Below are positions 3,751 through 47,012 of a stretch of DNA of 64,000 bases, in pieces. The notes below the pieces were generated by a model. It ran no database searches. It had not been told where the DNA came from and saw only the letters and a program-made list of their open reading frames with translations. The number at the start of each line of letters is the position of its first letter. Position 1 is the first letter of the stretch. A program made the translations under genes and the position numbers. Location: the NCBI GenBank assembly GCA_965230975.1, contig OZ246402.1:101771-165770 (forward strand), read 5' to 3'. This DNA comes from an uncultured Candidatus Saccharibacteria bacterium. GTDB taxonomy: Bacteria; Patescibacteriota; Dojkabacteria; J137.

Positions 3751-4179
3751 ATGGAAATTAAGAAAGTAGAATTACTAAATAAAGAGGGCTTAGAAAAATT
3801 CCTAAGCATTGGATCTGGTTGTGTAATTATTAACAACAACAAAGTCTTATTGGTAAGAGGTATTGGTGGTGATTCTTTTAAATTCCCAGGAGGGCATATT
3901 AAAGATGATGAAAATTTAAAACAATCTGCTCAAAGAGAGTGTGAAGAAGAGATTGGTTGCAAAGTAGAAACAGTAGGAGACCCAACATTTTTTTTGTTTA
4001 AAGCAAGTGATGATTTAAGTATTGTACTTGTTCACTACATGGCTAAAATCGTAGAAGGAGAACCAAAACCAACTACAGAAATAGATGAGATTCAGTGGTT
4101 TGATGTAAATAAACTTCCCCTAAACGTTTTTGAAAATGTTAAACCTGTATTAGATTTCTTTAAAAAAGAGATTATTTAA
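3751..4179 (+). CDS. NUDIX hydrolase
   Basis: Nudix box GGHIKDDENLKQSAQRECEEEIG (GX5EX7REUXEEXGU). Confidence 0.8.
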   Translation: MEIKKVELLNKEGLEKFLSIGSGCVIINNNKVLLVRGIGGDSFKFPGGHIKDDENLKQSAQRECEEEIGCKVETVGDPTFFLFKASDDLSIVLVHYMAKIVEGEPKPTTEIDEIQWFDVNKLPLNVFENVKPVLDFFKKEII

Positions 4180-34212: not shown

Positions 34213-34941
34213 ATGATTTTTAAAGAAATTTTAAACATTGGGAGCAATGAGATTGAATTAACTACCCAATCTCAGTTATCTAAAAAAACTATTTCAGAAA
34301 TACAATTCTTAATTGATTTTTTTTCAAAAGAATTAAATCATAATATTAAGGAATCTTCTGCATGGAAATTTAATAATGGGCAAATCAGAATCCCAATTTA
34401 TGTAAAGCCAGAATTTATTCAGTATTTCAAGTTTGTTTATAAAATATTTTCTAATCACCCAGATACTTTTGAACCTTTTTCAATTTCTTTTTTTAAAATT
34501 GATTATGTTAGCTTTGACAATAACTCAGAATATATAATTAAAAATACTGACTTTAAATTTGATACCTCATTTTTTCGATTAAACTTTATAGTTCAATACA
34601 TTGCAGAATACTTAAAAGAAAAAAAGTTTGATACATTTTTAATTCAATGGGATGAGAAATATATTGCATTTGGCAATTATGACTGGGAAGTTCTTCCAGG
34701 GGGTCATAAATATATTTTAAATAACTCTTCTGCTATTTTTTTTCACTACTCACCTTCAGGTTTTGAATCACATAAATTTGGGGCCATTCAAAATGAACTA
34801 AGTGAATCAGATGCACTAGTATTAGGCCAAGATTTATCTGAACTAAAGGTTTTAACCCCTCAAATCAACTACCTAAATACAAAAACTGACTTAAGCAAGT
34901 TTTCTTACGAAAATAATATTAAAGTGGTGTTTTTGGACTAA
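34213..34941 (+). CDS. hypothetical protein
   Basis: 242-aa ORF, soluble, Phe/Tyr-rich, no motif. Confidence 0.4.
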
Positions 34942-35219
34942 TGTTTGTGTTTAAGATTTTCCGGTACAGGGTCAAAGCCTCCTTTGCTTAGTGGATTGCA
35001 TCTTAAAATCCGTTTAAAACCCATCCACCCCCCTTTAAGTAGGCCAAACCTATCAATTGACTGATATGTATACTCTGAGCAACTTGGGGTAAATATGCAC
35101 ACCCTATACCCTCCGGCTAAATATGGAGCCCAAAATGAGTGATCAAAAGATAAAGTCTTTTGATAGATCCTAATTAGTAACTTTGCTATGTTTTTTGGAA
35201 GATTGATTATATTTTTCAC
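34938..35219 (-). CDS. yidD: membrane protein insertion efficiency factor YidD
   Basis: [48 protein letters not shown] is the canonical YidD signature. Confidence 0.85.
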
Positions 35220-35273
35220 AAAATAATTTTAACATCTTAGAATTTTTTAATTACTAAAAATTCTATACTATAA

Positions 35274-35291
35274 GTTATCCACATGGATAAC
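35274..35291. promoter_or_regulatory. DnaA-box inverted pair (oriC / dnaA autoregulatory element)
   Basis: gTTATCCACAtggataac. It contains the perfect consensus box TTATCCACA, and on the opposite strand TTATCCATG. It sits 107 bp upstream of the dnaA start in an AT-rich spacer. Confidence 0.55.
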
Positions 35292-35397
35292 TTTTCATGT
35301 ATAATAAAAAAAACCTTGATGATACTAACTTTCACAACGCACTTTGCATAAAAAGTTTACTCAATAAGTTCAATCTAGTTATACAACTATATAGTTT

Positions 35398-36810
35398 ATG
35401 AAAATTAAAGACGAAAAACAGCTTTGGAAAACTGCCTTAGCACAAATTGAAATAAAAATAGATGCGCCAACTACATTTAGAACTTTTTTCCAAGAAACAA
35501 AACTCATATCTATTGATGGAAATACTGCAAGAATAGGTGTTCCAAATCCATACACCGCAGAGTGGTTAAAAAATAAATACGAAAGAATGATAAAAGACAC
35601 ACTTAGCTATGTTTTTGGAGAAACCTTAAATCCTGTTTTTGAAGTTTTGCAAAGAGTTGATTCTGAACCAGAACCGATTTCCGAAATAATGAATACAGAA
35701 AAACAACCCCTTTTATCTATGGAAAATGGTGTTATGGGAAATGTATTAGATTTGGTTAGAAAAGCTGGCCTTAATCCAAAATACACCATTTCAAATTATG
35801 TAGTTGGTAATTACAATATGATGGCACATGCAGCCGCAATTGGGGTTATTAACAATCCTGGAACTGCTTACAATCCATTATTTATTCATGGAAAAACTGG
35901 GCTTGGTAAAACTCATTTAGCACAAGCAATTGCGCGCTCAATAATAGAGAGAGATCCCTCAAAAAGGATTTTGTATACATCATCTGAGGGTTTTATGAAT
36001 GATATGGTTAAAGGTATTAAAAGTGGCCAAAGTGATAGAAACAGATCAAAGTACAGATCAATAGATTTATTGATCGTTGATGATATGCAGTTAATTTCAA
36101 AATGGGTTCATACTCAAGAGGAATTTTTTAATACTTTCAATGAATTATTTAATAATGGTAAGCAGATTATCCTTATTGCAGATAGAAGACCTGAAGAGAT
36201 TCAAAATATAGAAGCAAGGTTAAAAACAAGAATGCAAGGAGGTATGGTTGTAGATATTCAAAGCCCTGATTACGAAATTAGATTGGCAATTTTAGAAAAG
36301 AAGGCAGAACTTGGTGGAGTTAATTTAAAACCTCATGTTATAGAATTTATTGCCAGGTCAATTACCGACAATGTAAGAGAACTTGAAGGTGCTTTACAAA
36401 AAGTTTCTTTGTTTAATCAAATGAAGCCCAATGGAGATTTAACTTTAGAAGAGGTTGCTCACATGATTGGTAAAGATATTTCTTCAAAACGAGAACAGGT
36501 AAAAGTTCCGCAGGTTTTAAAAGAGGTGGGAAAAACTTTTAATGTTAGTGTTAAAGAGCTTAAGGGACCAAGAAGAACTAAAGATTTGGCACTAGCAAGG
36601 CAAGTTGCCATGTACATTTTAAGAGAGGAATTCAACTATAAGCTTGAAGAGGTTGCCAACTTTTTAAATCGAGAAGATCACACTACAGTGATTCATGCTA
36701 TTGATAAAGTTAAAAGCAAAATGATGTTGCAGGATGGTTTTAATAGACAGGTTGCAAAATTAATAACTACAATACAAGATAGTGCTACTGTAACACAGGA
36801 TATGGAATAG
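35398..36810 (+). CDS. dnaA: chromosomal replication initiator protein DnaA
   Basis: Walker A GKTGLGKTHLAQAI, Walker B LLIVDDMQ, sensor motifs, and a C-terminal DNA-binding domain LALARQVAMYILRE. Confidence 0.95.
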   Translation: MKIKDEKQLWKTALAQIEIKIDAPTTFRTFFQETKLISIDGNTARIGVPNPYTAEWLKNKYERMIKDTLSYVFGETLNPVFEVLQRVDSEPEPISEIMNTEKQPLLSMENGVMGNVLDLVRKAGLNPKYTISNYVVGNYNMMAHAAAIGVINNPGTAYNPLFIHGKTGLGKTHLAQAIARSIIERDPSKRILYTSSEGFMNDMVKGIKSGQSDRNRSKYRSIDLLIVDDMQLISKWVHTQEEFFNTFNELFNNGKQIILIADRRPEEIQNIEARLKTRMQGGMVVDIQSPDYEIRLAILEKKAELGGVNLKPHVIEFIARSITDNVRELEGALQKVSLFNQMKPNGDLTLEEVAHMIGKDISSKREQVKVPQVLKEVGKTFNVSVKELKGPRRTKDLALARQVAMYILREEFNYKLEEVANFLNREDHTTVIHAIDKVKSKMMLQDGFNRQVAKLITTIQDSATVTQDME

Positions 36811-37377
36811 CTATTTAGCTTCTAATAAAAGTTCCTGATTTCTTAAATATGTTAGTTCAACATCGGGACTACACTTGTAATGGTTTCTTAATATGCTGTT
36901 AAGCTTTTCACCTTTTAATGAGTTAAATCTATCTTCGCTTGTTCTAATAATAGTTTCTTTGCCATCCACACTAAACTTTACTTTGTATAATGTAGTTATA
37001 CTTCTTGGAGCTGTTTCTGTAAATATTTCGCAACTTCCAGTATAGTAAGATTCCCCCTCTAATAAATCTTTAGTGCTCACGAATACCATAAAAATACCTA
37101 TTCCAAAAAACACAATTACACCTAATAACCATCTTGTATATATACTATTGCCAAGTTTTTTTCTTCTTTTGAATATTAGATATAAGATACTTCCAGATAC
37201 TGATACTATTGCTAGATTAAGCGTGGCTTGACCAAAATTAATTACCCTCCAATTTTCTAAACTTATTATGTTTTTATAGTCAATAATAAAGTCTGTTGTT
37301 ACTATTAAAAATATAAGTGACAAGATTATTAATATAGTCACTAACGTTTTAATTAAAGTTGTTTCTTTTAATTTCAT
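36811..37377 (-). CDS. hypothetical membrane protein (3 TM helices plus a C-terminal soluble domain)
   Basis: 188 aa. It is convergent with dnaA (stop-to-stop adjacent). No motif. Confidence 0.45.
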   Translation of the reverse strand: MKLKETTLIKTLVTILIILSLIFLIVTTDFIIDYKNIISLENWRVINFGQATLNLAIVSVSGSILYLIFKRRKKLGNSIYTRWLLGVIVFFGIGIFMVFVSTKDLLEGESYYTGSCEIFTETAPRSITTLYKVKFSVDGKETIIRTSEDRFNSLKGEKLNSILRNHYKCSPDVELTYLRNQELLLEAK

Positions 37378-37501
37378 TTATAGGATAACTTAAATATTTA
37401 ATTATACTTTATTGTGTTCTTTGTTGCTAATTTGTATTGCGGCACAATGTTTTTCTTATCTGCAAGTGCTAATATCCTTGTATAAATATTAATCAAGTTT
37501 T

Positions 37502-37981
37502 ATGTTTTTTATTTGGGGATGGGGTCATAGAAAAAACAAAGATTTAGGCTCTGTAAATAAAGCTATTTGTTCTAACTGTTCTAATATTACAAAGTTTAGA
37601 ATGCTAGATCATTCTGAGTGGTTTACCTTCTTTTTTATTCCTATTATTCCGTATTCAAAAAAGAAGTTTGTTTATTGTCCCGTTTGTGATTATGCTATTG
37701 AAATAGACGAAGATAACGCTTTAGAGTTAAAGCAGATTGCAAATCTTAATAATGCTTACGATAAAGGTGACTTAAGTGAAGATGAATACGAGAAGTTAAA
37801 CAATAAGCTTAATAGTATTTTAGAAATTGGCACCGAGACTTTAAAATCGGATGTTGTTTTTAACAAAGTGAGTATAGTACAAGAACCAGAAACAGGCTTA
37901 ACTAAATTCTTAAAAAGCAAAGAGTTAAAAATATTACTCTACTCTGTGTTTGTTATTGCAGTGTTGTATTTGGTGTTTTAG
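37502..37981 (+). CDS. zinc-ribbon plus SHOCT-domain protein with a C-terminal TM helix
   Basis: CSNCSN...CPVCDY forms a Cys4 ribbon. LKQIANLNNAYDKGDLSEDEYEKLNNKL is the SHOCT motif. The C-terminal helix is ILLYSVFVIAVLYLVF. Confidence 0.5.
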   Translation: MFFIWGWGHRKNKDLGSVNKAICSNCSNITKFRMLDHSEWFTFFFIPIIPYSKKKFVYCPVCDYAIEIDEDNALELKQIANLNNAYDKGDLSEDEYEKLNNKLNSILEIGTETLKSDVVFNKVSIVQEPETGLTKFLKSKELKILLYSVFVIAVLYLVF

Positions 37982-38075
37982 CTAAATGCCAGCACCTATA
38001 AAATCAAAGACGATGTTCTCTTTTTCATCATACAAAGCATCTGCAGAGGCTTTAATTCGATATTTGCTCATATTA

Positions 38076-38594
38076 TTATTTACTACCTTTAAAAACTTTT
38101 CCATCTATACTATCTACCCACTCTTCAAGTACATCTTTAGGAAATTTAATATTTATTAAGTGATCTTCTGGAATGGGTGTAAATCCAGAGAGAAGTTCAC
38201 CTAAAGAATATTCCTTATACAAATCCCTAAGTTTGTAATAAAAGAAAGATCTTTCTGGCTCTAAAGCATCTGATAATCTGTGATAAAAAGCCTTATTGTT
38301 TAAAATAAAGTCAAATCCTGTGTATCTCACTTTCTTAAATAAACCAGTCCGATAATTCTTACTGATCCATTCCGCTGGCTTTCGATCATCTATAACTTTA
38401 AAAAGATTTGAGTCGTATTCTTTAGTTACAAAATAATCATATGTAATTACAACATCGTCTAATCTGAAATCCATAATGTTATCATCTAGAATTTCATATT
38501 GCTTTTTTCCTTTAGCATCTTCTGAAATTCCAATAACCAAGTACTTTTTGCCTTTGGTTATAAAGTCTTTGTCTGTTAAGCTTTCCAAGATCAT
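38076..38594 (-). CDS. hypothetical protein; candidate immunity protein for the upstream RHS toxin
   Basis: 172-aa ORF that starts 6 nt after the RHS stop on the same strand. Soluble, no motif. Its position is the canonical one for an Rhs immunity gene. Confidence 0.45.
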   Translation of the reverse strand: MILESLTDKDFITKGKKYLVIGISEDAKGKKQYEILDDNIMDFRLDDVVITYDYFVTKEYDSNLFKVIDDRKPAEWISKNYRTGLFKKVRYTGFDFILNNKAFYHRLSDALEPERSFFYYKLRDLYKEYSLGELLSGFTPIPEDHLINIKFPKDVLEEWVDSIDGKVFKGSK

Positions 38595-38599
38595 ATATT

Positions 38600-41500
38600 T
38601 TATCTAATAATTAAGCTACTCATGCTAGTGATTTTAATCTGCTTACTTATTGGTAATATTGTGCTTTGCAAATAGTGTACTGTATATTTATTACCTCCTG
38701 CAACTCGAACATATTCAACTTTATTCCAAAGTGAGCTAAAGAGACGTGGGTCAGCAAGTTTTTTCCCTCCTGAACTAAATATAATATTTCCTTTTCCTAC
38801 AGCCTCTTCCATAACTAGTTTTTCTGTCAGGTTTGATGGAGAAGACGCATATTTAGGAATGCCCTTTGCAACAACTTTTGAAGCAATGGAGCTAATTCCA
38901 TAGCCTATTGCAGCGGTTACCCCCCCTGTTACACCACCTACAACTACAGCTTGAGCTAAACCTTCGACTGAAAATTGTTTTTCTTGAACTGCAACTTGTG
39001 CAGTATAGATAATAGCACCCGTCGCTGCACCAACTGCAATACCTACTCCAATTGCGCACACTACTGTCGCTAAACAAGCTGCCCCTGCTAACGCACCTGC
39101 CCCTACCGTTAATGCCGTAGACACAGCTGCACCTATTATTTCCCACTTATTTTCTTTGAAGAAATTACCTATCTCTTCCCAGAACATTCCACTAAAATCA
39201 TTCCCATTCAGCGGATCTACTGGATACACATAATCATTCTGTGTTCCACCTTCTACAGGGTCAACTTGCAAGAATCTACCTAATTCTGGAACATAAACTC
39301 TTGCACCCATTTGAATAAAATCAATATCAAACCTAACCTCTGTATCCCTTAAAGCACTACCACCAAAACCATAATCTGTAGTTGCAGCAATTTGAACCCC
39401 AAAAGGATCGTACCTAAAAATACTACCTGTATTCTTAGCAAGCACATTACCAGTTGAACTCATAATACTGTATTCAGAAACATCTGCTTTAACGGTCAAC
39501 CTTAAACCTGGTAAAGAAACATACCTTTCAATAATTGTACCTGCACCATTCTTTAAAACATCTGCAGAACTAGAACTACTACTAAACCCATAAACCTTAA
39601 CACTCTCACCCGAATTAAAATTACTGTTAATAACTCTACCTAAAACATCTCGAGTATATTGAATCCTACTACCCTCTTGAGAAACCGCTACATTTTGATC
39701 TGAAACATCATATTCAAAACTCAAATTACCCATCTCTATTGTATTACCGTGAGAATCATATTGAATCCCAGCAAACTTATTATTAGACGCTTGTATTAAT
39801 TTATCTGCAGCATCGTAACAATACTCGTTAGTAACAGTCACACCCTCAATAGTCAAAGAATCTGATGTCCTATTAAAATTCTTGTTTGAATTTTGAAAAG
39901 AACAATTAGTTGCCTGATTATAGTTATATGCAAATTGCCTATCTCCATAATCTGCTGCAACTAACCTATCTGCTTTATCAAAAGTATAGCTCTGATTATA
40001 AACTTGAGAATCTTGTGTAAACTTTTGAGCTAAAGTCAAACCTGATTGAGATTTAGTCAATTCTTCTGAAATAATTGTTCCATCACTTTGCCTCCAAGTA
40101 TATTTAATAGGCCTTTCTAAAGAATCTCTTGTAGTCCCTAAGTAAGCCAATTGTCCAGCCTCTGGATAAGTAATTGTAGAAACTCTACCTAAAGAATCGT
40201 AACTTACATTTGCATAAACAACTCCATTGTAAAGTTTAGATGTAACTTGAGAATAATCATTGTAAGTCCAAGACTCTGTACCGACTTCAGAAACCTTTTG
40301 AGTTAACCTATTTTGATTATTGTAAGTATAATTTGAAACACTTCCTAATGCATCTGTGTATTTAACTAAATTACCTAAGTAATCGTATTCAGAAATACTT
40401 ACAGTAGAACCATCCGTTACTAATCTTTTTAGTGGATTTCCACCATATGCAAAGTTATTAGTAACAGTCTTACCAGTCTTTTCATTGTTACTTGCAATAA
40501 CCTTGCTTTCTACTCTTCCTCTTGAATCATAATTTGTACAGTTCCATGCCTCGTCATTAATTTTACTCGCAACAACCCTACCAGAAGCATCATAAACAAC
40601 TTGTGTGCTTCTACCTACTTGTAAACCATCTCCATCTGGGTCTACCTCGGTTTTACCCTTTGCAAAACCAGCTTGAGAAACGGGGTCTGATGCAGGTGTA
40701 CATGGATTATCTACACTTTCTGTTGCTCCATAATATGAATATTTAGTAACAGATCCACCTGCTGAAGTTTTTGAAAGTTGCCTAAAGTAACCACTACCTT
40801 GAGGCTCATAACTTGCACTACTTTGATAATTTAAACCATTTGGATCTAAGACTTTATTTGCTACAAGACCGTATGCTGGGTCTTGATAGTTTGTTTTAGT
40901 TTCAATATTGCCGAGTTGTTGATCATAAATAACGTTTGTTGTAGCCAAGTTGTAACCAGGTGCTAAGTTGAGCCATTTATTAGTTTCTGTAATACCAGGG
41001 CCAGAAATTGTTGCATTAATAACAGGTGTAGTACCAAAACTTGCAAAATCTAATCTTACTCTATAAACCTTGCCTGCTTCTAAGGCAATTGAACCAGTTT
41101 TTTCAACACTTGTTGCAGATCTATTTGCCCAATTATCAATAATCAGTTGATCGTTAACAAATAATCTTGCACCGTCTGTATGTTGAAGTTTAAAGTTATA
41201 GGTTCCATTTTGAGCAATGCTTAATTTCCCTGTTAAAGAGAACCCTACTCCATCCATTCCCGCCTCTTTCGTAATGGGGAATGCTTGGTTTCTATAATCA
41301 AAATTCATTACTGCTTTGTCGTTATTGATTCCAAACTTGTGTAATTTTGGACTTCCGAATAACGTTGCTGTTGTTGGAGTATTACTTTTAACTTGATAAT
41401 AAGCAACTGCTGGACCTTGTAACCCCTCATCATATCTAGTTTCTGTTTTTGGAACTTGATTGACATAAGTAGATAATGGTTTTCTATCTGTACCAAACCA

Positions 41501-44500
41501 ACTTGCAGGTGCTGGGCCATAACTTTCTAAAGGTCTATCGTCTGAATCATAAATTGTAGTGCTTTTTAAACCTGTAGGACCAGTTGTACTTAAAATAATA
41601 TCTTTTGCACTATCCCATTCAGTTGTTGTACACAAAGCTATGTTGTCGCAAATCTTTGTAGTTCTATACTTAGAATCAAATTCTAAATATTTTGAATAAC
41701 CTACAGGTTCAGGTATTCCAACTAAATGTTGTTTAGAAGCTCTTGGGTAATATTCTAAGGTATGCTGTAAATTGGAATTCCCCGTATTACTTGGAAAGTA
41801 AACTTTTGTAGCTCTACCTAAAGCATCGTATTCAAAGTTGTAGCTAGCACCTTGTTCGTTTGCATTTCTTAAACCAGCCATTATGCTATCAATCATTCCT
41901 GTGTCTCTTAAAGAAGCTATTCTTCCATCTGTGTAGTAACCATACTCAAAAGATGCATCACCCGGGTAGTCAATTTTGTACAAATTGCCTTTATAGTAAT
42001 TAAACTTTGTCCATTTACCATCTGTTGTATAGAATGCACATAAGTGACCTGTTGGAATAGCATAGTCACCGCTAGTTGCGCTACACTCTGCTTCGCCTTG
42101 ATAGTAAAGTTTTCCAAACCTTGAGGAATCTACACCATCTATAATTCTTCTTAACCTTGTAAACCCACCTACATTTGCATACTCGTACTTTAATCCTGCT
42201 GGATTTTTATCATCATATGCAGTACTGGTTTCTTTTAATTTAAACTGCCCCGAGTTATCTAGTACATCATAAATATAAGTTGTGCCAGCTGTATCTGTAA
42301 AGGTATACGTACCATCATTATTTTTAACTAACCAACCATCCTCATTTACAGGTGATTTGTAACCTCCATTGTTGTAAGTGTATAAAGATTCTGTTCCATC
42401 TGTAGATATCATTACAACATCTTGATTTGCTTTTACTTTTAATGATTCAAAAGGGATAGAGCCATTAGAATCTAATGTTAAGTTCCATCCACTTGGCAAA
42501 GCTTTTACTTCTGGAATTAAATATTTACTTTCAATAACACCATTTAAACTAGGTCCAGTCCATTTTAAGGCTACTGATGCACCACCAGTTTTTTCGTACA
42601 TATCTACTACAATTTTGTTTGGTTGACCTGCCGTTAATTGAACACTGCCAGACCAAGCCTCAGTGTACCCATGGTCTGTCCAATTTTGAGCGATAATATT
42701 TCCATTTAAAGTAAGTCTGGAACCATCATCTGAACCAACTCCAAATGTATAATTGCCAGTAGTGGGAGCTATCACATAACCTTCATATCTAACTAAAAAG
42801 TTATCAACAGGGCCACCTACAACTGGTGAATACCCATCCCAATTATAGTTAATTTGAGGTTCATTTCTTAGTAAGAATCTAGTTGTATTTACATTAAAAT
42901 CATGGGTGCCATTGTCGTAATAATACTTACCTGTTAAACCCGTATTATTACTTAATGGAACAGGTGCTGTTCTAAAATATTCTGAAGGGACTACTTTTTG
43001 TGTACCATCTGGCATTTGAACATAAAGAATCGCTGTTGCTCCACCTCCAAACTCTACCATCTCCATTTTAATTGGCCATAGTTGACCCTCTGTAAGTGCT
43101 ACAGTATTGCCCATCCACTTTGTTCCGCAACATGGTGCATCTAAAATTACTGTGTTATTTCCATAAACTTTTATATTGTCATCTCCCATTACTCCAAATT
43201 TATAGTTACCTGTTGTTGGAGCAACAAAGTAACCTGACCATTGAGCCGAGAAATTATCTACACTTACTATTCCTGGGTAAGGAGACCCAGTTAGCCAATA
43301 ATTATCAATATTTGCATTTATAGTTGAATAGATTGGATCTCCGCTAAAAGTAGTGTTATTCCAATATTTAGCAGATAAACCCTCTCTGGTTATTGTTGGG
43401 GTATTGTATTCTAAGCCGATTCCAATATTCCCACCCAATGCATTCATTGAATGCGAGCTATTTGTTGTATATGCATTACCTGTTGCTAAGTTAACAGCAA
43501 AAGGACCTGCTTCATCGTAAGCTTGTGTAGGGTCTTTTCCTGCTCTAAAGTCCGTTTTGAAAGTTGCACTAAAAGACGGGCTTCCATGTTGATAATAATC
43601 GTCTCTAACGTATACACTCCACCTATATGTCTGACCATTTTGTAAAATACCATCTACCACAGTCATTGTTGGTGATGTAGTAAAACCACTTCTTTGTACA
43701 ATAGTATTATTGCTATCCCACAAAATAAATTCGTGGGTTAAGGTGTCTCCATCAGCATCATTTGCAGGGTTAGCTCTTAGGTTAACAGTTGTTGTTGTTA
43801 CTACAGAATTATCTGCAGGTGCACTTAAAGTAGCGTTATTATTTGGAATGTTGTTATAGGCCAAATTTAGTCTTGCATTGGCTGCATCAAAAGCTTTAAA
43901 TGTATCATATCTGTTTTCCTCTCCCCAAATAATTAACCAACCTCCATAAACTTTATTATCTGACAACCATTGGATTAAAGGTTTCATATCAATGTAACCG
44001 GAGGTTGTCATACGAGCACTCATTATAGGAGACCACCCAACGCAGTTAAAACTTATGCAACTTGCCCATGCAACGTTAATTTGTGCATTTGTATTGTAAA
44101 AACCGTTCCATCGATATGATTTGTAGCCCATTTGCAAATATAAATTTGCTCCTAAAACTTGCTTCCCAATTATTTCATCGTAATTAAATCTAACTACACT
44201 TCTCCAAGATTTTTGACCACCATCATTCAATCCACCTGTATTCATATCGCAATAAACATAATCACATGCATATCCATTACTTTTGTAAGAATAATATGCC
44301 CTAGATCCATTTTCTACTGTTTTTGTTGGGTAAACTGCAGGGTCTATTGATATGGGGAAGTTTTCTGGTTTTAATGATTTTAGCCAGTCTGCATTAAGAC
44401 TTACTTTAACTGTATTACCCTCAATTGTTTGACTTATTACATCTTCTGTAACTGGCCCAATGTTAGTAGCAATAATATATAGTGGTTCAATTACGAAGAC

Positions 44501-45334
44501 TTCATTACCAACTTTAATATTTAAAGCGCCTTTTTCTTCCGTTGAATATGATAATTCACCTCCAACAACTTCAAATTCAAAGTTTGGATTTTTTATGTAC
44601 TTATTTAATACAATATATTCTTTAATATAGTCATCATGAAATTCGTAAACCAAATCTACATTTTCCCAAGCATTTCTATAAATTACTGCACCTTCTAATT
44701 CTTCAGGTTTTACATTATTTATATTTTTGGGTTTGAAAGTTAGTTCTTGACCAGCTACATTAATCGTTATTCCATTAGAAAGTTTTTTATATTTAACATC
44801 TAATTTGCTTGAGTCTATCTCTAAATCTTCTTTGTTCTTTTTTACATTGTTTTTTATCTCTTTAAATGAATCATTCTCTTTTGTAAATCTATCTGTCAAA
44901 CTTTGCTCTACAATATTTAAACCTTCTTGTGTAGTATATTTTTTTGTTTTCTCATCTATATTTTTTGTATTTGAAGTATTTTTCTTTAGGTTTTCTATTT
45001 CTTCATTTTTTATAGACTTTAACTCTTGTTTATTATCGTTTGCAGTTGTACCACTTAACTTATCTGAATAATCAACCCCACTACCTAAAGGATATGGTGA
45101 TTCTTGTACTTTTAATGGGTCTATCCTATCTGCTTTCTTTATTTTGGAGTCTTGATAATTCTTATTCTCTTTGATTGCTTTCGAATTTAATCGAACAAAC
45201 TCAGATTCAGATACTTTCTTGCGTAACTCAATTATATTTTGTGCATTAATGGCTATTGGCTGAAATGTTTGAAATATTACTAAGAGGCACAGCAAGACAC
45301 CTACCCTACTTAAGTGTTTTAGGATTATATCCAT
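38600..45334 (-). CDS. secreted RHS/YD-repeat polymorphic toxin (2244 aa) with three PA14 domains and a variable C-terminal domain
   Basis: Signal peptide [34 protein letters not shown]14 hallmarks [26 protein letters not shown] and [14 protein letters not shown]. More than 15 YD repeats ([28 protein letters not shown], and others). The Rhs core ends [38 protein letters not shown]. The ~190-aa C-terminal tail has glycine-zipper hydrophobic stretches. Confidence 0.85.
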
Positions 45335-45570
45335 ATAATAAAGAGTAAAAAATATAGATTTGGTTTACAGCTATATAAATTTACCCTTTTATACCAAAAT
45401 ATTTTTTACTCCGCATTGTGCCGTGGCGCAAATTTTGAGGTTTTTTTCAAAAAATTCGTTGTGTTTAGAAATTAAATTTAATTATTACATTGAAATACTT
45501 GGTGGTAAAGCTTTATCCCAAGTAAAAAACATCACAGGTAATGTTTGTTACTATTGTCTAATATCATAAA

Positions 45571-45758
45571 TTAATCCATATTACTTTAACAGTTCTAAAC
45601 TTCTCCACCTGGCTATAATGCTTTATAGCTGAAAGCTTTCTAAAAGATATTCCTAAATTACACCAAGATAATTCCACACTAGATAATTTCTATTAAGCTT
45701 GTAGGTAAATAGTTTCAACGAAGATGCGATAGAATTAATCCACTCAACTTTTCCACAT
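45571..45758 (+). promoter_or_regulatory. cluster of DnaA-box-like motifs plus an AT-rich tract upstream of dnaN (candidate oriC half)
   Basis: There are five same-orientation TCCA(C/T) cores: TTAATCCAT, TTCTCCACC, AATTCCACA, TAATCCACT, TTTTCCACA. They score 7/9, 7/9, 6/9, 7/9 and 8/9 against TTATCCACA. An AT-rich stretch follows at 45781-45860. Confidence 0.3.
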
Positions 45759-45866
45759 ATACGAAATGGCGAGATTGCTGATATAATAAAAATATTAGAA
45801 GACATATACACATATCAACATGCCCTATAACTATAAACTTCTACTTTTTAAAATATAATATTAGTT

Positions 45867-47012
45867 ATGGAAATCAAATTAAACCATACAAACTTAGCAA
45901 AGTCTTTACAATATACAAGTAGAGCTGTAAGTGCCAAACCAAACATACCAGTATTGAGTAATGTACTTTTAGATGTAACTAAAAATGGATTAAAACTTTC
46001 TGCAACTAATTTAGACATGGGGATAAACGTGTGGATACCTGGGTTGGTAGATCACGAGGGAAAGATTACTGTATCAGCAAAATTCATTTCTGACTTTGTA
46101 AGTGCATCTAGTGGAGACAATGTAGAGTTAAAATTAGATGGAAGTGTCGTAACTGTTAAAACAGATAAATCAAAAGCAAATTTTAATACAATATTAGCAA
46201 ATGAATTTCCGGTACTTCCAGAAATTTCCGAAACACCTCTCTTTAAAATCTCGGCAAAAGAATTTATGACATCTATGGATAAAGTCATATTTTCCTGCTC
46301 TACCGATATGAGCATTGGTAAGATTCAACAAAGTGGGGTTTTATTTGAACTTAATAAAGAAGATTCAGAAGTAATTTTTGTAGGTTTAGACGGTTTTAGA
46401 CTTTCTAAAAGAAATGCTAAGGTAAAAGATTTAGCAGAAACATTGCCTACAGAACAAATTATAGTGCCTGCAAAATACTTGGCTGAAGTTCAAAAGATTG
46501 CATCAGATTACGTAGATTTAGATGAAATTGAAGTTTATTTAAGTAAAAATAACTCTCAAATAATATTCAAATTTGAAGAGATTGAATTTAGCATTAGATT
46601 AATAGAAGGTCCTTACCCTGAATACAAAAGAATATTACCAGACTCTGCATCATTTACTTTTGAGGTAAAAAGAGGTGATTTAGAGAATGCTATTAAAGTT
46701 GTTAATACATTTGCAAGAAGTAACTTAGGTTACAAGACTTTGTTTGATTTAGATTTAGAAAACTCTGCTATTAAATTAAAATCAATTGTTGCAGAGGTTG
46801 GTGAAAATGAATCTATTGTTAATGTTACAGAAGTTCAGGCCGATACAGACTTAAATACATCTTACAACTTAAAGTTTATTCAAGATGTTGTTTCTCATAT
46901 TAAAGGAGATACTATTATTTTCGAAACAAAAGGCCCTTTGGCTGCGTCAGTATTTAAAGATAAATCAGATGCAAGGTTTGTACATTTGCTAATGCCTTTA
47001 AGAAGAGAATAA
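45867..47012 (+). CDS. dnaN: DNA polymerase III beta subunit (sliding clamp)
   Basis: 381 aa. N-terminus MEIKLNHTNLAKSLQYTSRAVSAKPNIPVLSNVLLDV, with a three-domain length. Confidence 0.9.
   Translation: MEIKLNHTNLAKSLQYTSRAVSAKPNIPVLSNVLLDVTKNGLKLSATNLDMGINVWIPGLVDHEGKITVSAKFISDFVSASSGDNVELKLDGSVVTVKTDKSKANFNTILANEFPVLPEISETPLFKISAKEFMTSMDKVIFSCSTDMSIGKIQQSGVLFELNKEDSEVIFVGLDGFRLSKRNAKVKDLAETLPTEQIIVPAKYLAEVQKIASDYVDLDEIEVYLSKNNSQIIFKFEEIEFSIRLIEGPYPEYKRILPDSASFTFEVKRGDLENAIKVVNTFARSNLGYKTLFDLDLENSAIKLKSIVAEVGENESIVNVTEVQADTDLNTSYNLKFIQDVVSHIKGDTIIFETKGPLAASVFKDKSDARFVHLLMPLRRE

Follow-up and report, generated by a model that had tools for sequence, protein, structure and literature searches.

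A conserved DnaA-box module upstream of dnaN, a probable part of the replication origin, beside an inserted RHS cassette in a Dojkabacteria genome

The stretch of contig OZ246402.1 that we analysed (64 kb in all, hereafter the window) has a GC content of 32% and is of the Candidatus Dojkabacteria (WS6) type; its DnaN and DnaA find their nearest matches in named Dojkabacteria metagenome-assembled genomes. Our subject is the region just upstream of dnaN, in which an earlier note on this DNA had seen five DnaA-box-like motifs, an AT-rich tract and, possibly, one half of a split replication origin. The local gene order is yidD, dnaA, a 188-aa open reading frame (ORF), a gene for a zinc-ribbon protein, a 172-aa ORF, a gene for an RHS protein, a 532-bp spacer and finally dnaN (Table 1). 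The spacer, from which the RHS gene and dnaN diverge, is the largest intergenic region in the window.

We compared this spacer with the corresponding regions of relatives, whose loci (designated here by L numbers) were collected through DnaN, which yielded six loci from genomes and about 10 close ones from metagenomes, and through DnaA look-ups, which added nine relatives' loci (L038, L043–L049). Fourteen non-redundant dnaN-upstream regions, with DnaN identities of 52–89%, were aligned, and 19 loci were viewed by inspection. Four of the five motifs noted earlier, starting at 45601, 45670, 45736 and 45749 (boxes I to IV), recurred at fixed spacing in the 14 aligned relatives and in 19 of the 19 loci inspected. 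Identity in the alignment columns of boxes I–IV was 0.70–0.89, as against 0.50–0.59 in the spacers between them. In the window, the elements from box I onward follow one another at 69, 66, 13, 27, 28 and 15 bp. Among the loci, the corresponding distances are 65–69 bp from box I to box II and 65–66 bp from box II to box III (each in 12 of the 14), 13 bp from box III to box IV, 27 bp from box IV to a −10 promoter element, 28 bp from there to box V and 15 bp from box V to the first CTA of a run of triplets. Because the position, orientation and spacing of the boxes are conserved while the spacers have diverged, the element is real, and we have little doubt that 45599–45866 (about 270 bp) is a lineage-wide DnaA-binding module, physically tied to dnaN.

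The five motifs as originally listed do lie on the plus strand at the coordinates given and span 187 bp. Only four of them, however, belong to the conserved element. The motif at 45571 falls outside it, because it lies to the left of the point where the homology of the relatives begins (about 45598, from the comparison with L007, L013 and L017), that is, in non-homologous DNA on the side of the RHS gene; homology with the relatives starts at box I. The original list also missed two overlapping boxes (45804/45812) and two reverse-oriented ones (46018, 46030). A separate feature of the box I neighborhood is an inverted repeat, GCTATAA-tgct-TTATAGC, which is found at 45612–45629, right after the box and overlapping a TATAAT; it is conserved in the closest relatives only.

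Box IV is the fourth-best matrix match in the whole window. In the 10 loci that we scanned over ±10 kb, the densest 300-bp window of box-like sites, or a tie for it, was always just upstream of dnaN, and no alternative box cluster was found in the 64-kb window or within ±10 kb of any locus. An origin of the dnaA–dnaN type is expected to have three or more DnaA boxes clustered in the intergenic DNA by dnaA or dnaN; here, there are six at 45601–45820 and two more inside dnaN. The boxes are oriented toward the AT-rich tract, matching the geometry of origin unwinding.

Table 1. Coordinates of the genes and sequence elements discussed in the text; identities are column identities in the alignment of 14 loci.
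Feature	Position in window	Strand	Remarks
yidD	34938–35219	−	
dnaA promoter	35273–35305	+	palindromic DnaA-box operator GTTATCCACATGGATAAC (35273–35290), 9 bp before TATAAT (35300–35305)
dnaA	35398–36810	+	Pfam matches DnaA_N, Bac_DnaA, Bac_DnaA_C
Inserted cargo cassette	~36845–45598		~8.75 kb; orf188, zinc-ribbon protein, orf172, RHS protein
188-aa ORF (orf188)	between dnaA and zinc-ribbon gene	−	
Zinc-ribbon protein gene	between orf188 and orf172	+	
172-aa ORF (orf172)	between zinc-ribbon gene and RHS gene	−	
PA14/GLEYA/RHS protein gene	38600–45334	−	2244 aa; named from Pfam domains
First motif of the earlier note, TTAATCCAT	45571–45579	+	7/9 matches only after a 1-nt shift (TAATCCATA at 45572)
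DnaA box I, TTCTCCACC	45601–45609	+	TCCAC-type in 12/14 loci; identity 0.72 vs 0.52 in flanking spacer
DnaA box II, AATTCCACA	45670–45678	+	conserved CCACA; identity 0.70
DnaA box III, TAATCCACT	45736–45744	+	first of tandem pair; TTATCCACA-type in 13/14 loci; identity 0.83
DnaA box IV, TTTTCCACA	45749–45757	+	13 bp start-to-start from box III; 14/14 loci; identity 0.89
Extended −10 promoter, TGATATAAT	45779–45787	+	GCTGnTATAAT, identity 0.90
Overlapping double box V/VI, ATATACACA (45804) and ATATCAACA (45812)	45804–45820	+	8 bp start-to-start
GC cluster TGCC	45821–45824	+	between box pair and triplets
DnaA-trio-like triplets (CTA TAA CTA TAA ...) and AT-rich tract	45825–45866	+	candidate unwinding element and dnaN leader, up to the dnaN ATG
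dnaN (DNA polymerase III beta clamp)	45867–47012	+	all three Pfam beta-clamp domains matched
Two box-like sites within dnaN, TTATCCCCA and GTATCCACA	46018–46038	−	12 bp apart; dnaN codons 51–58

Midway through the module lies an extended −10 element, very probably the promoter of dnaN, since all four occurrences of TGNTATAAT in the window are intergenic and lie upstream of a gene in the correct orientation. From the end of box IV to the −10 hexamer there are 24 bp, and from the hexamer to the start of box V 17 bp, so that, judged from sequence alone, dnaN has the conserved core promoter flanked or overlapped by boxes that would be expected of a DnaA-regulated gene.

Downstream of this promoter, the module takes on the appearance of an unwinding unit. 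The double box V/VI forms a ACACATATCnAC block whose identity (0.87) places it among the most conserved stretches of the module, and box V scored at least 6 in 12 of the 14 loci with a matrix that had not been trained on it. A C-rich spacer of 3–4 bp (TCC, CCC, GCC or CGCC) follows in nearly all loci, and then come the triplets, of which the first, CTA, is invariant, while the third is CTA or CTG in 13 of the 14 loci. Known origin-unwinding modules, read on the TTATCCACA strand, have the order box or boxes, short GC cluster, CTA-type triplets (3'-GAT-5' on the opposite strand) and AT-rich DNA. We confirmed this orientation in three ways: by the oriC2 of Clostridioides difficile, in which boxes, GC cluster and CTA repeats succeed one another from the dnaA side to the dnaN side (PMC7561715), by published search rules for unwinding systems (PMC8287927), and by two distant dnaN loci (27–28% identity) that served as positive controls, as both have textbook unwinding modules upstream of dnaN. 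One of these, L030, reads TTATCCACATATCCACA-GCAC-TTA-CTA x5 at about 380–540, and L026 is similar at about 4000–4165.

The search rules ask for a box with at most two mismatches within 0–16 bp of the triplets, and for a run of three or more triplets whose middle base on the bottom strand is A, i.e., NTN on top (PMC8287927). Box VI, with two mismatches, ends 4 bp before the first CTA. A tandem second box and a short GC-rich spacer are also present, boxes V and VI being co-oriented and followed by TGCC; the 8-bp overlap of the pair is unusual, but the same arrangement (TTATCCACATATCCACA) precedes the textbook DnaA-trio array of L030 and is likewise seen in L046. The triplet rule held in nine of the 14 relatives, clearly so in L012 and L046, with the reservation that it is very permissive in AT-rich DNA. 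These last two loci are GC-richer (51–55% AT, with 74–79% AT in the last 42 nt before dnaN) and carry canonical DnaA-trio arrays at the homologous spot, namely CCC-CTA CTA AGA CTA CTA CTA in L012 and TGTTCACATATACACA-CGCC-CTA ATA ATA ATA in L046. DnaA-trios were also sought directly after the tandem boxes III/IV, without success, in a stretch of low conservation that runs on into the promoter.

The conservation of the dnaN leader is explained neither by a conserved RNA structure nor by a Shine-Dalgarno sequence. We found no consensus structure for the leader, a single-sequence z-score of −0.9 and no Rfam match there, and only two of the 55 gene starts in the window have a Shine-Dalgarno-like sequence, meaning that the genome is essentially without such sites. 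Many genes in the window have a TATAAT some 20–30 nt before the ATG, implying short leaders without Shine-Dalgarno sequences; the dnaN leader, about 72 nt long and conserved, is an exception among these short and unconserved ones. Three low-coverage contigs from different assemblies (L035, L036 and L037), identical in dnaN, start 30–41 nt before its ATG (45826 and 45837 in window coordinates), i.e., inside the conserved leader, which could reflect an assembly break at a strain-variable point or a coincidence.

The two reverse-oriented sites inside dnaN were present at +151/+163 in nearly all loci and face the upstream boxes across the dnaN start. At these sites rare codons are used, GGG in 9 of 11 loci (it makes up 13.6% of the glycine codons in the window) and GTG in 7 of 7 (8.3% of the valine codons), and the neighboring synonymous sites vary freely. 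It is suggestive, as far as codon choice can tell, that the intragenic box-like sites are held by these rare codons. Codons 51–58 were not, however, the top window for synonymous constraint in dnaN.

On the strength of its anatomy, its position and the canonical versions in GC-richer relatives, we consider that the module is probably the DnaA-assembly and unwinding part of a chromosomal oriC of the dnaA–dnaN kind and, at the same time, a DnaA-controlled dnaN promoter. DnaA binding, unwinding, firing of the origin and control of the promoter would, as we infer them, proceed as follows. DnaA on the co-oriented boxes would oligomerize toward dnaN, the oligomer would engage the triplets on the bottom strand (3'-GAT-5'), and the AT-rich tract would then be opened. 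DnaA occupancy would also set the transcription of the clamp gene, because box sites flank and overlap its promoter. The RHS cassette landed between the dnaA stop codon and box I and left the module intact.

A number of observations weigh against this interpretation, and we give them here together with the alternatives on which they bear. The earlier note had counted on a density of box-like motifs above background, and for the single sequence this expectation failed. The degenerate consensus TTWTNCACA, allowing at most one mismatch, gave 248 matches in the window versus 247.9 expected and is thus uninformative as a detector in an AT-rich genome. With a matrix built from the relatives' boxes only (the window being left out) and 200 simulated first-order Markov sequences, the share with an equally dense cluster somewhere was 12.5% in the most favorable setting (clusters on the same strand within 200 bp) and reached 99% at the other extreme, which is non-significant window-wide (simulation p = 0.13–0.9). 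Only with the location fixed beforehand was the density unusual, with five same-strand matches in that 200 bp against 0.36 expected. Such figures would suit a functionless chance cluster of TCCAC-like words in AT-rich intergenic DNA; this is contradicted by the comparative conservation, the boxes having kept position, orientation and spacing at DnaN identities of 52–89% while the spacers diverged, and we find a chance origin hardly credible.

Similar caution applies to the tract at 45781–45860 that had been proposed as an unwinding element. It is AT-rich (81%), yet unexceptional for this genome: of all 80-bp windows inside intergenic DNA, 6.4% equal or exceed its AT content, and the 64 kb contain about a dozen non-overlapping sites of lower stability. 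The segment 45825–45866 (86% AT) is correctly placed, but similar AT-richness is common in this genome; only against the GC-richer backgrounds of L012 and L046 is the tract conspicuous. The triplets of the window, taken in the CTA frame, follow a T.T.. pattern without three consecutive matches and are the weakest of the set; four consecutive NTN triplets (CTT CTA CTT TTT) do occur, starting 17 bp after box VI, which is 1 bp beyond the 16-bp limit.

The GC-skew analysis proposed in the earlier note favored an origin in the window, at low resolution. Since the raw cumulative GC skew was dominated by coding-strand bias, we used a coding-strand-corrected regression, of gene-wise skew on coding strand and on the side of the candidate switch point. 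In the window, the corrected skew was −0.048 before the module and +0.014 after it (t = 3.2), with a similar negative-to-positive step in GC3 (t = 3.1–3.8), but the optimum was flat, from about 22 to 54 kb. For 12 relatives, each analysed over ±10 kb, the pooled step at the module was +0.027 (95% confidence interval 0.005–0.051), with considerable heterogeneity (chi-square 32.8, 11 degrees of freedom): positive steps were clear in L005, L045 and L047, L002, L048 and L049 had the same sign on both sides, and L006 showed a step of the opposite sign. The gene-orientation bias around the module was a non-significant trend only. Overall, replication asymmetry is mildly, though not decisively, supportive of an origin at the module, and it is conceivable that frequent rearrangements at this site could scramble the local skew.

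The genome that contains both L006 and L038 (contig CAZLOI010000001.1) has dnaA and dnaN 95 kb apart. Its corrected skew is −0.056 around dnaA (91–113 kb) and positive just left of dnaN (187–197 kb), so that the sign apparently changes between the two genes and not exactly at either; no skew step was found at the unlinked dnaA of L038.

The presence of a strongly conserved promoter in mid-module also means that the conservation could largely serve transcription control alone. The main rival explanation is, in fact, that the module does no more than serve dnaN as a DnaA-controlled promoter and leader, the origin being elsewhere in the genome, and that transcription of the clamp gene is repressed or tuned through boxes III/IV, located at the −35 region, and boxes V/VI, which cover about +10 to +27. 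The extended −10 is among the best-conserved elements, its motif marks promoters elsewhere in the window, and the dnaA promoter follows the same design of DnaA box plus −10. The module, moreover, follows dnaN through at least six different upstream contexts, and several relatives lack a skew switch at the module, with the sign change in the L006 genome apparently lying between dnaA and dnaN. On the other hand, a simple operator would not need six boxes upstream, set at fixed distances across about 220 bp, and two more in dnaN. The GC cluster and the invariant CTA triplets have no obvious role in transcription and match unwinding modules, with canonical forms in L012 and L046, and neither the 64-kb window nor the ±10 kb around any locus offered another box cluster. 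We judge a purely transcriptional function to be a serious possibility, albeit an unlikely one.

According to the earlier note, the origin might have been made bipartite by the cassette, its two parts cooperating over about 10 kb, with DnaA co-regulating the divergent RHS toxin gene. Bipartite origins flanking dnaA do exist in Bacillus subtilis, C. difficile and Helicobacter pylori (PMC7561715, PMC3479198), and the only perfect TTATCCACA of the window is indeed located upstream of dnaA. That region, however, contains one palindromic operator and no cluster. The palindrome lies over the −35/spacer region of the promoter; together with TGTATAAT it is invariant in six loci, and it is the only conserved feature upstream of dnaA. 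Its sequence and placement suggest that it is likely an autorepression operator, and the layout is that of an autoregulated promoter, not of a box cluster.

Comparison with the relatives led to the same picture. Unlinked dnaA genes retain an operator-type site only, as in the genome with the 95-kb separation, where the full module stays with dnaN and the dnaA of L038 has just two promoter boxes. Among the relatives, the dnaA operator and the dnaN module may be adjacent, inverted, or separated by 5.6 kb, 10 kb (the window) or 95 kb; there is no conserved box cluster on the far side of dnaA, and the two sites are not kept in cis at a short distance, both distance and orientation being variable. 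The two sites are not an obligate cis pair, because in relatives the operator is inverted or lies 5.6 or 95 kb away, and the bipartite layout was not created by this particular cassette, because the separation varies in relatives too. In the window itself, the cassette lies outside the box array, which is intact beside dnaN.

As to co-regulation, the RHS gene and dnaN do share the 532-bp spacer. The 264 bp next to the RHS start, however, are cassette-borne DNA with promoter-like sites of their own at 45351–45509, and the sole box-like motif in them (45572) is unconserved; the distance from box I to the RHS start is 267 bp, and every box faces the other way. We thus consider both a cassette-made bipartite origin and DnaA control of the RHS gene to be very improbable.

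Two other points of the earlier note were borne out, namely that the region occupies the classical dnaA–dnaN intergenic position and that a cassette was inserted between dnaA and the boxes. In L007, L013, L012, L010 and L046, dnaA is directly upstream of the module and dnaN, without the cassette; the DnaN proteins of L007 and L013 are 88–89% identical to that of the window. L040 (1–3228), a contig from another sample whose DnaA is 100% identical, matches the window (34583–36844) at 99.8% identity up to 34 nt past the dnaA stop. Beyond 36844, the RHS cassette is replaced in L040 by other genes, one of them a TPR-like ORF, which makes this a strain-level replacement of cargo at the same junction. 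From the cassette-free relatives and the divergence of L040 at 36845 it follows that the RHS cassette of about 8.75 kb between the dnaA stop codon and box I is a true insertion. The box array was never interrupted in the relatives, and boxes I–VI all remain by dnaN in the window. At the cassette we found no integrase or attachment site and no flanking repeats or target duplication (the longest shared word was 8 bp). An empty-site variant of the same strain was not found either, since contigs with an identical DnaN keep the RHS cassette.

The GC content of the cassette is 33.5%, that of the rest of the window 31.8%. The RHS gene and orf172 together occupy 38076–45334 (minus strand). The RHS protein has three PA14 matches, a GLEYA domain, RHS repeats and a C-terminal extension after a DPxGxxxD-type core end. 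Immediately downstream of its gene lies orf172, in the position expected of an immunity gene but without a match in Pfam.

In this lineage, cargo insertions and rearrangements recur at the left edge of the module. Other cargo at the same place comprises two ORFs in L001, two small ORFs in L047 and a 727-aa beta-helix protein in L049. Further relatives have rearrangements that end at this edge, where the neighbor of the module is a methyltransferase (L005), a 1370-aa surface protein (L006), an ABC transporter (L009) or yidD (L002–L004, L008, L043 and L048); in L045, dnaA is divergent from dnaN across a shared 363-bp spacer. The left-edge cargo often consists of large secreted or surface proteins on the divergent strand (the 727-aa beta-helix protein, the 1370-aa surface protein, the RHS protein). 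We also observed that the yidD–dnaA block is inverted between relatives, with dnaA(−)/yidD(+)–dnaN in L002–L004, L008 and L048 and yidD(−)/dnaA(+)–dnaN in the window, L001, L007 and L046; one breakpoint of this inversion is the left edge of the module.

These features can be brought together in a joint reading, which we put forward tentatively and rate as somewhat unlikely in its entirety. Since the promoter sits between the box array and the box–GC–triplet unit, the unwinding unit would lie within the transcribed 5' leader of dnaN. A convergent pair of boxes would be encoded in dnaN codons 51–58 by means of rare codons. In these reduced bacteria, which lack Shine-Dalgarno sites, firing of the origin and expression of the clamp would form one physical switch that moves with dnaN and not with dnaA, and the left edge would be a preferred landing site for surface and toxin cargo such as the RHS cassette.

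If the module is an origin, it gives an uncultured lineage of the Candidate Phyla Radiation a concrete origin anatomy that can be tested, and a functional unit that stays with dnaN through many rearrangements; it would also be useful for orienting and checking assemblies and for estimating replication rates from metagenomes. Our literature search turned up no publication about the origins of this group of bacteria. The recurrent cargo at the left edge (the RHS toxin here; beta-helix and TPR proteins and small ORFs in relatives) is a modest observation on genome plasticity beside an essential site. None of these findings overturns current understanding.

Several known systems offer parallels. 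Synechococcus elongatus has a dnaN-linked origin and an unlinked dnaA; here, too, the box cluster travels with dnaN, as the 95 kb between dnaA and dnaN in L006/L038 illustrate, whereas the arrangement with dnaA next to dnaN is ancestral and the commonest in our lineage. The dnaA promoters of Escherichia coli and B. subtilis are autoregulated by DnaA. Similarly, boxes overlap the core promoter at dnaA (35273–35305), and at dnaN box IV and boxes V/VI flank the −10, but boxes are far more numerous in the dnaN module, where they keep fixed distances over a long range and are joined by a triplet and AT-rich unit. Staphylococci have an 'oriC environ', with SCCmec, that is a hot spot for origin-proximal cargo. 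In both cases accessory genes gather by the origin or dnaA, with the difference that our locus yielded neither an integrase or attachment site nor flanking repeats.

The H. pylori oriC (PMC3479198), with its two sub-origins split by dnaA, is the model behind the split-origin idea; both of its halves have box clusters, whereas here only one side does and the separation among relatives ranges from 0.3 to 95 kb. The oriC2 of C. difficile (PMC7561715) resembles our module in its dnaA–dnaN intergenic location and in its order of several co-oriented boxes, a GC cluster (CACC there), CTA repeats and an unwinding element (a candidate one here). In that species, however, a rich oriC1 upstream of dnaA is needed for melting in vitro, while the dnaA side of our locus has an autoregulatory palindrome only. 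The dnaA–dnaN part of the B. subtilis oriC (Richardson 2016, 2019; Pelliciari 2021, PMC8287927) likewise lies upstream of dnaN and has a box pair toward the unwinding side. Its basal unwinding system (boxes 6/7, GC cluster, DnaA-trios and AT-rich DNA) resembles our module in the 3–4 bp GC cluster, the 3'-GAT-5'-first triplets and the AT-rich run. It differs in that our box pair overlaps by 1 bp (8 bp start-to-start), our triplets alternate between CTA and TAA and do not form a continuous array, the upstream boxes are separated by a conserved promoter from the candidate unwinding unit, which thereby falls inside the dnaN 5' leader, and there is no box cluster upstream of dnaA. Irrespective of these variations, the element is ordinary in kind, and its design is of the familiar dnaA–dnaN type.

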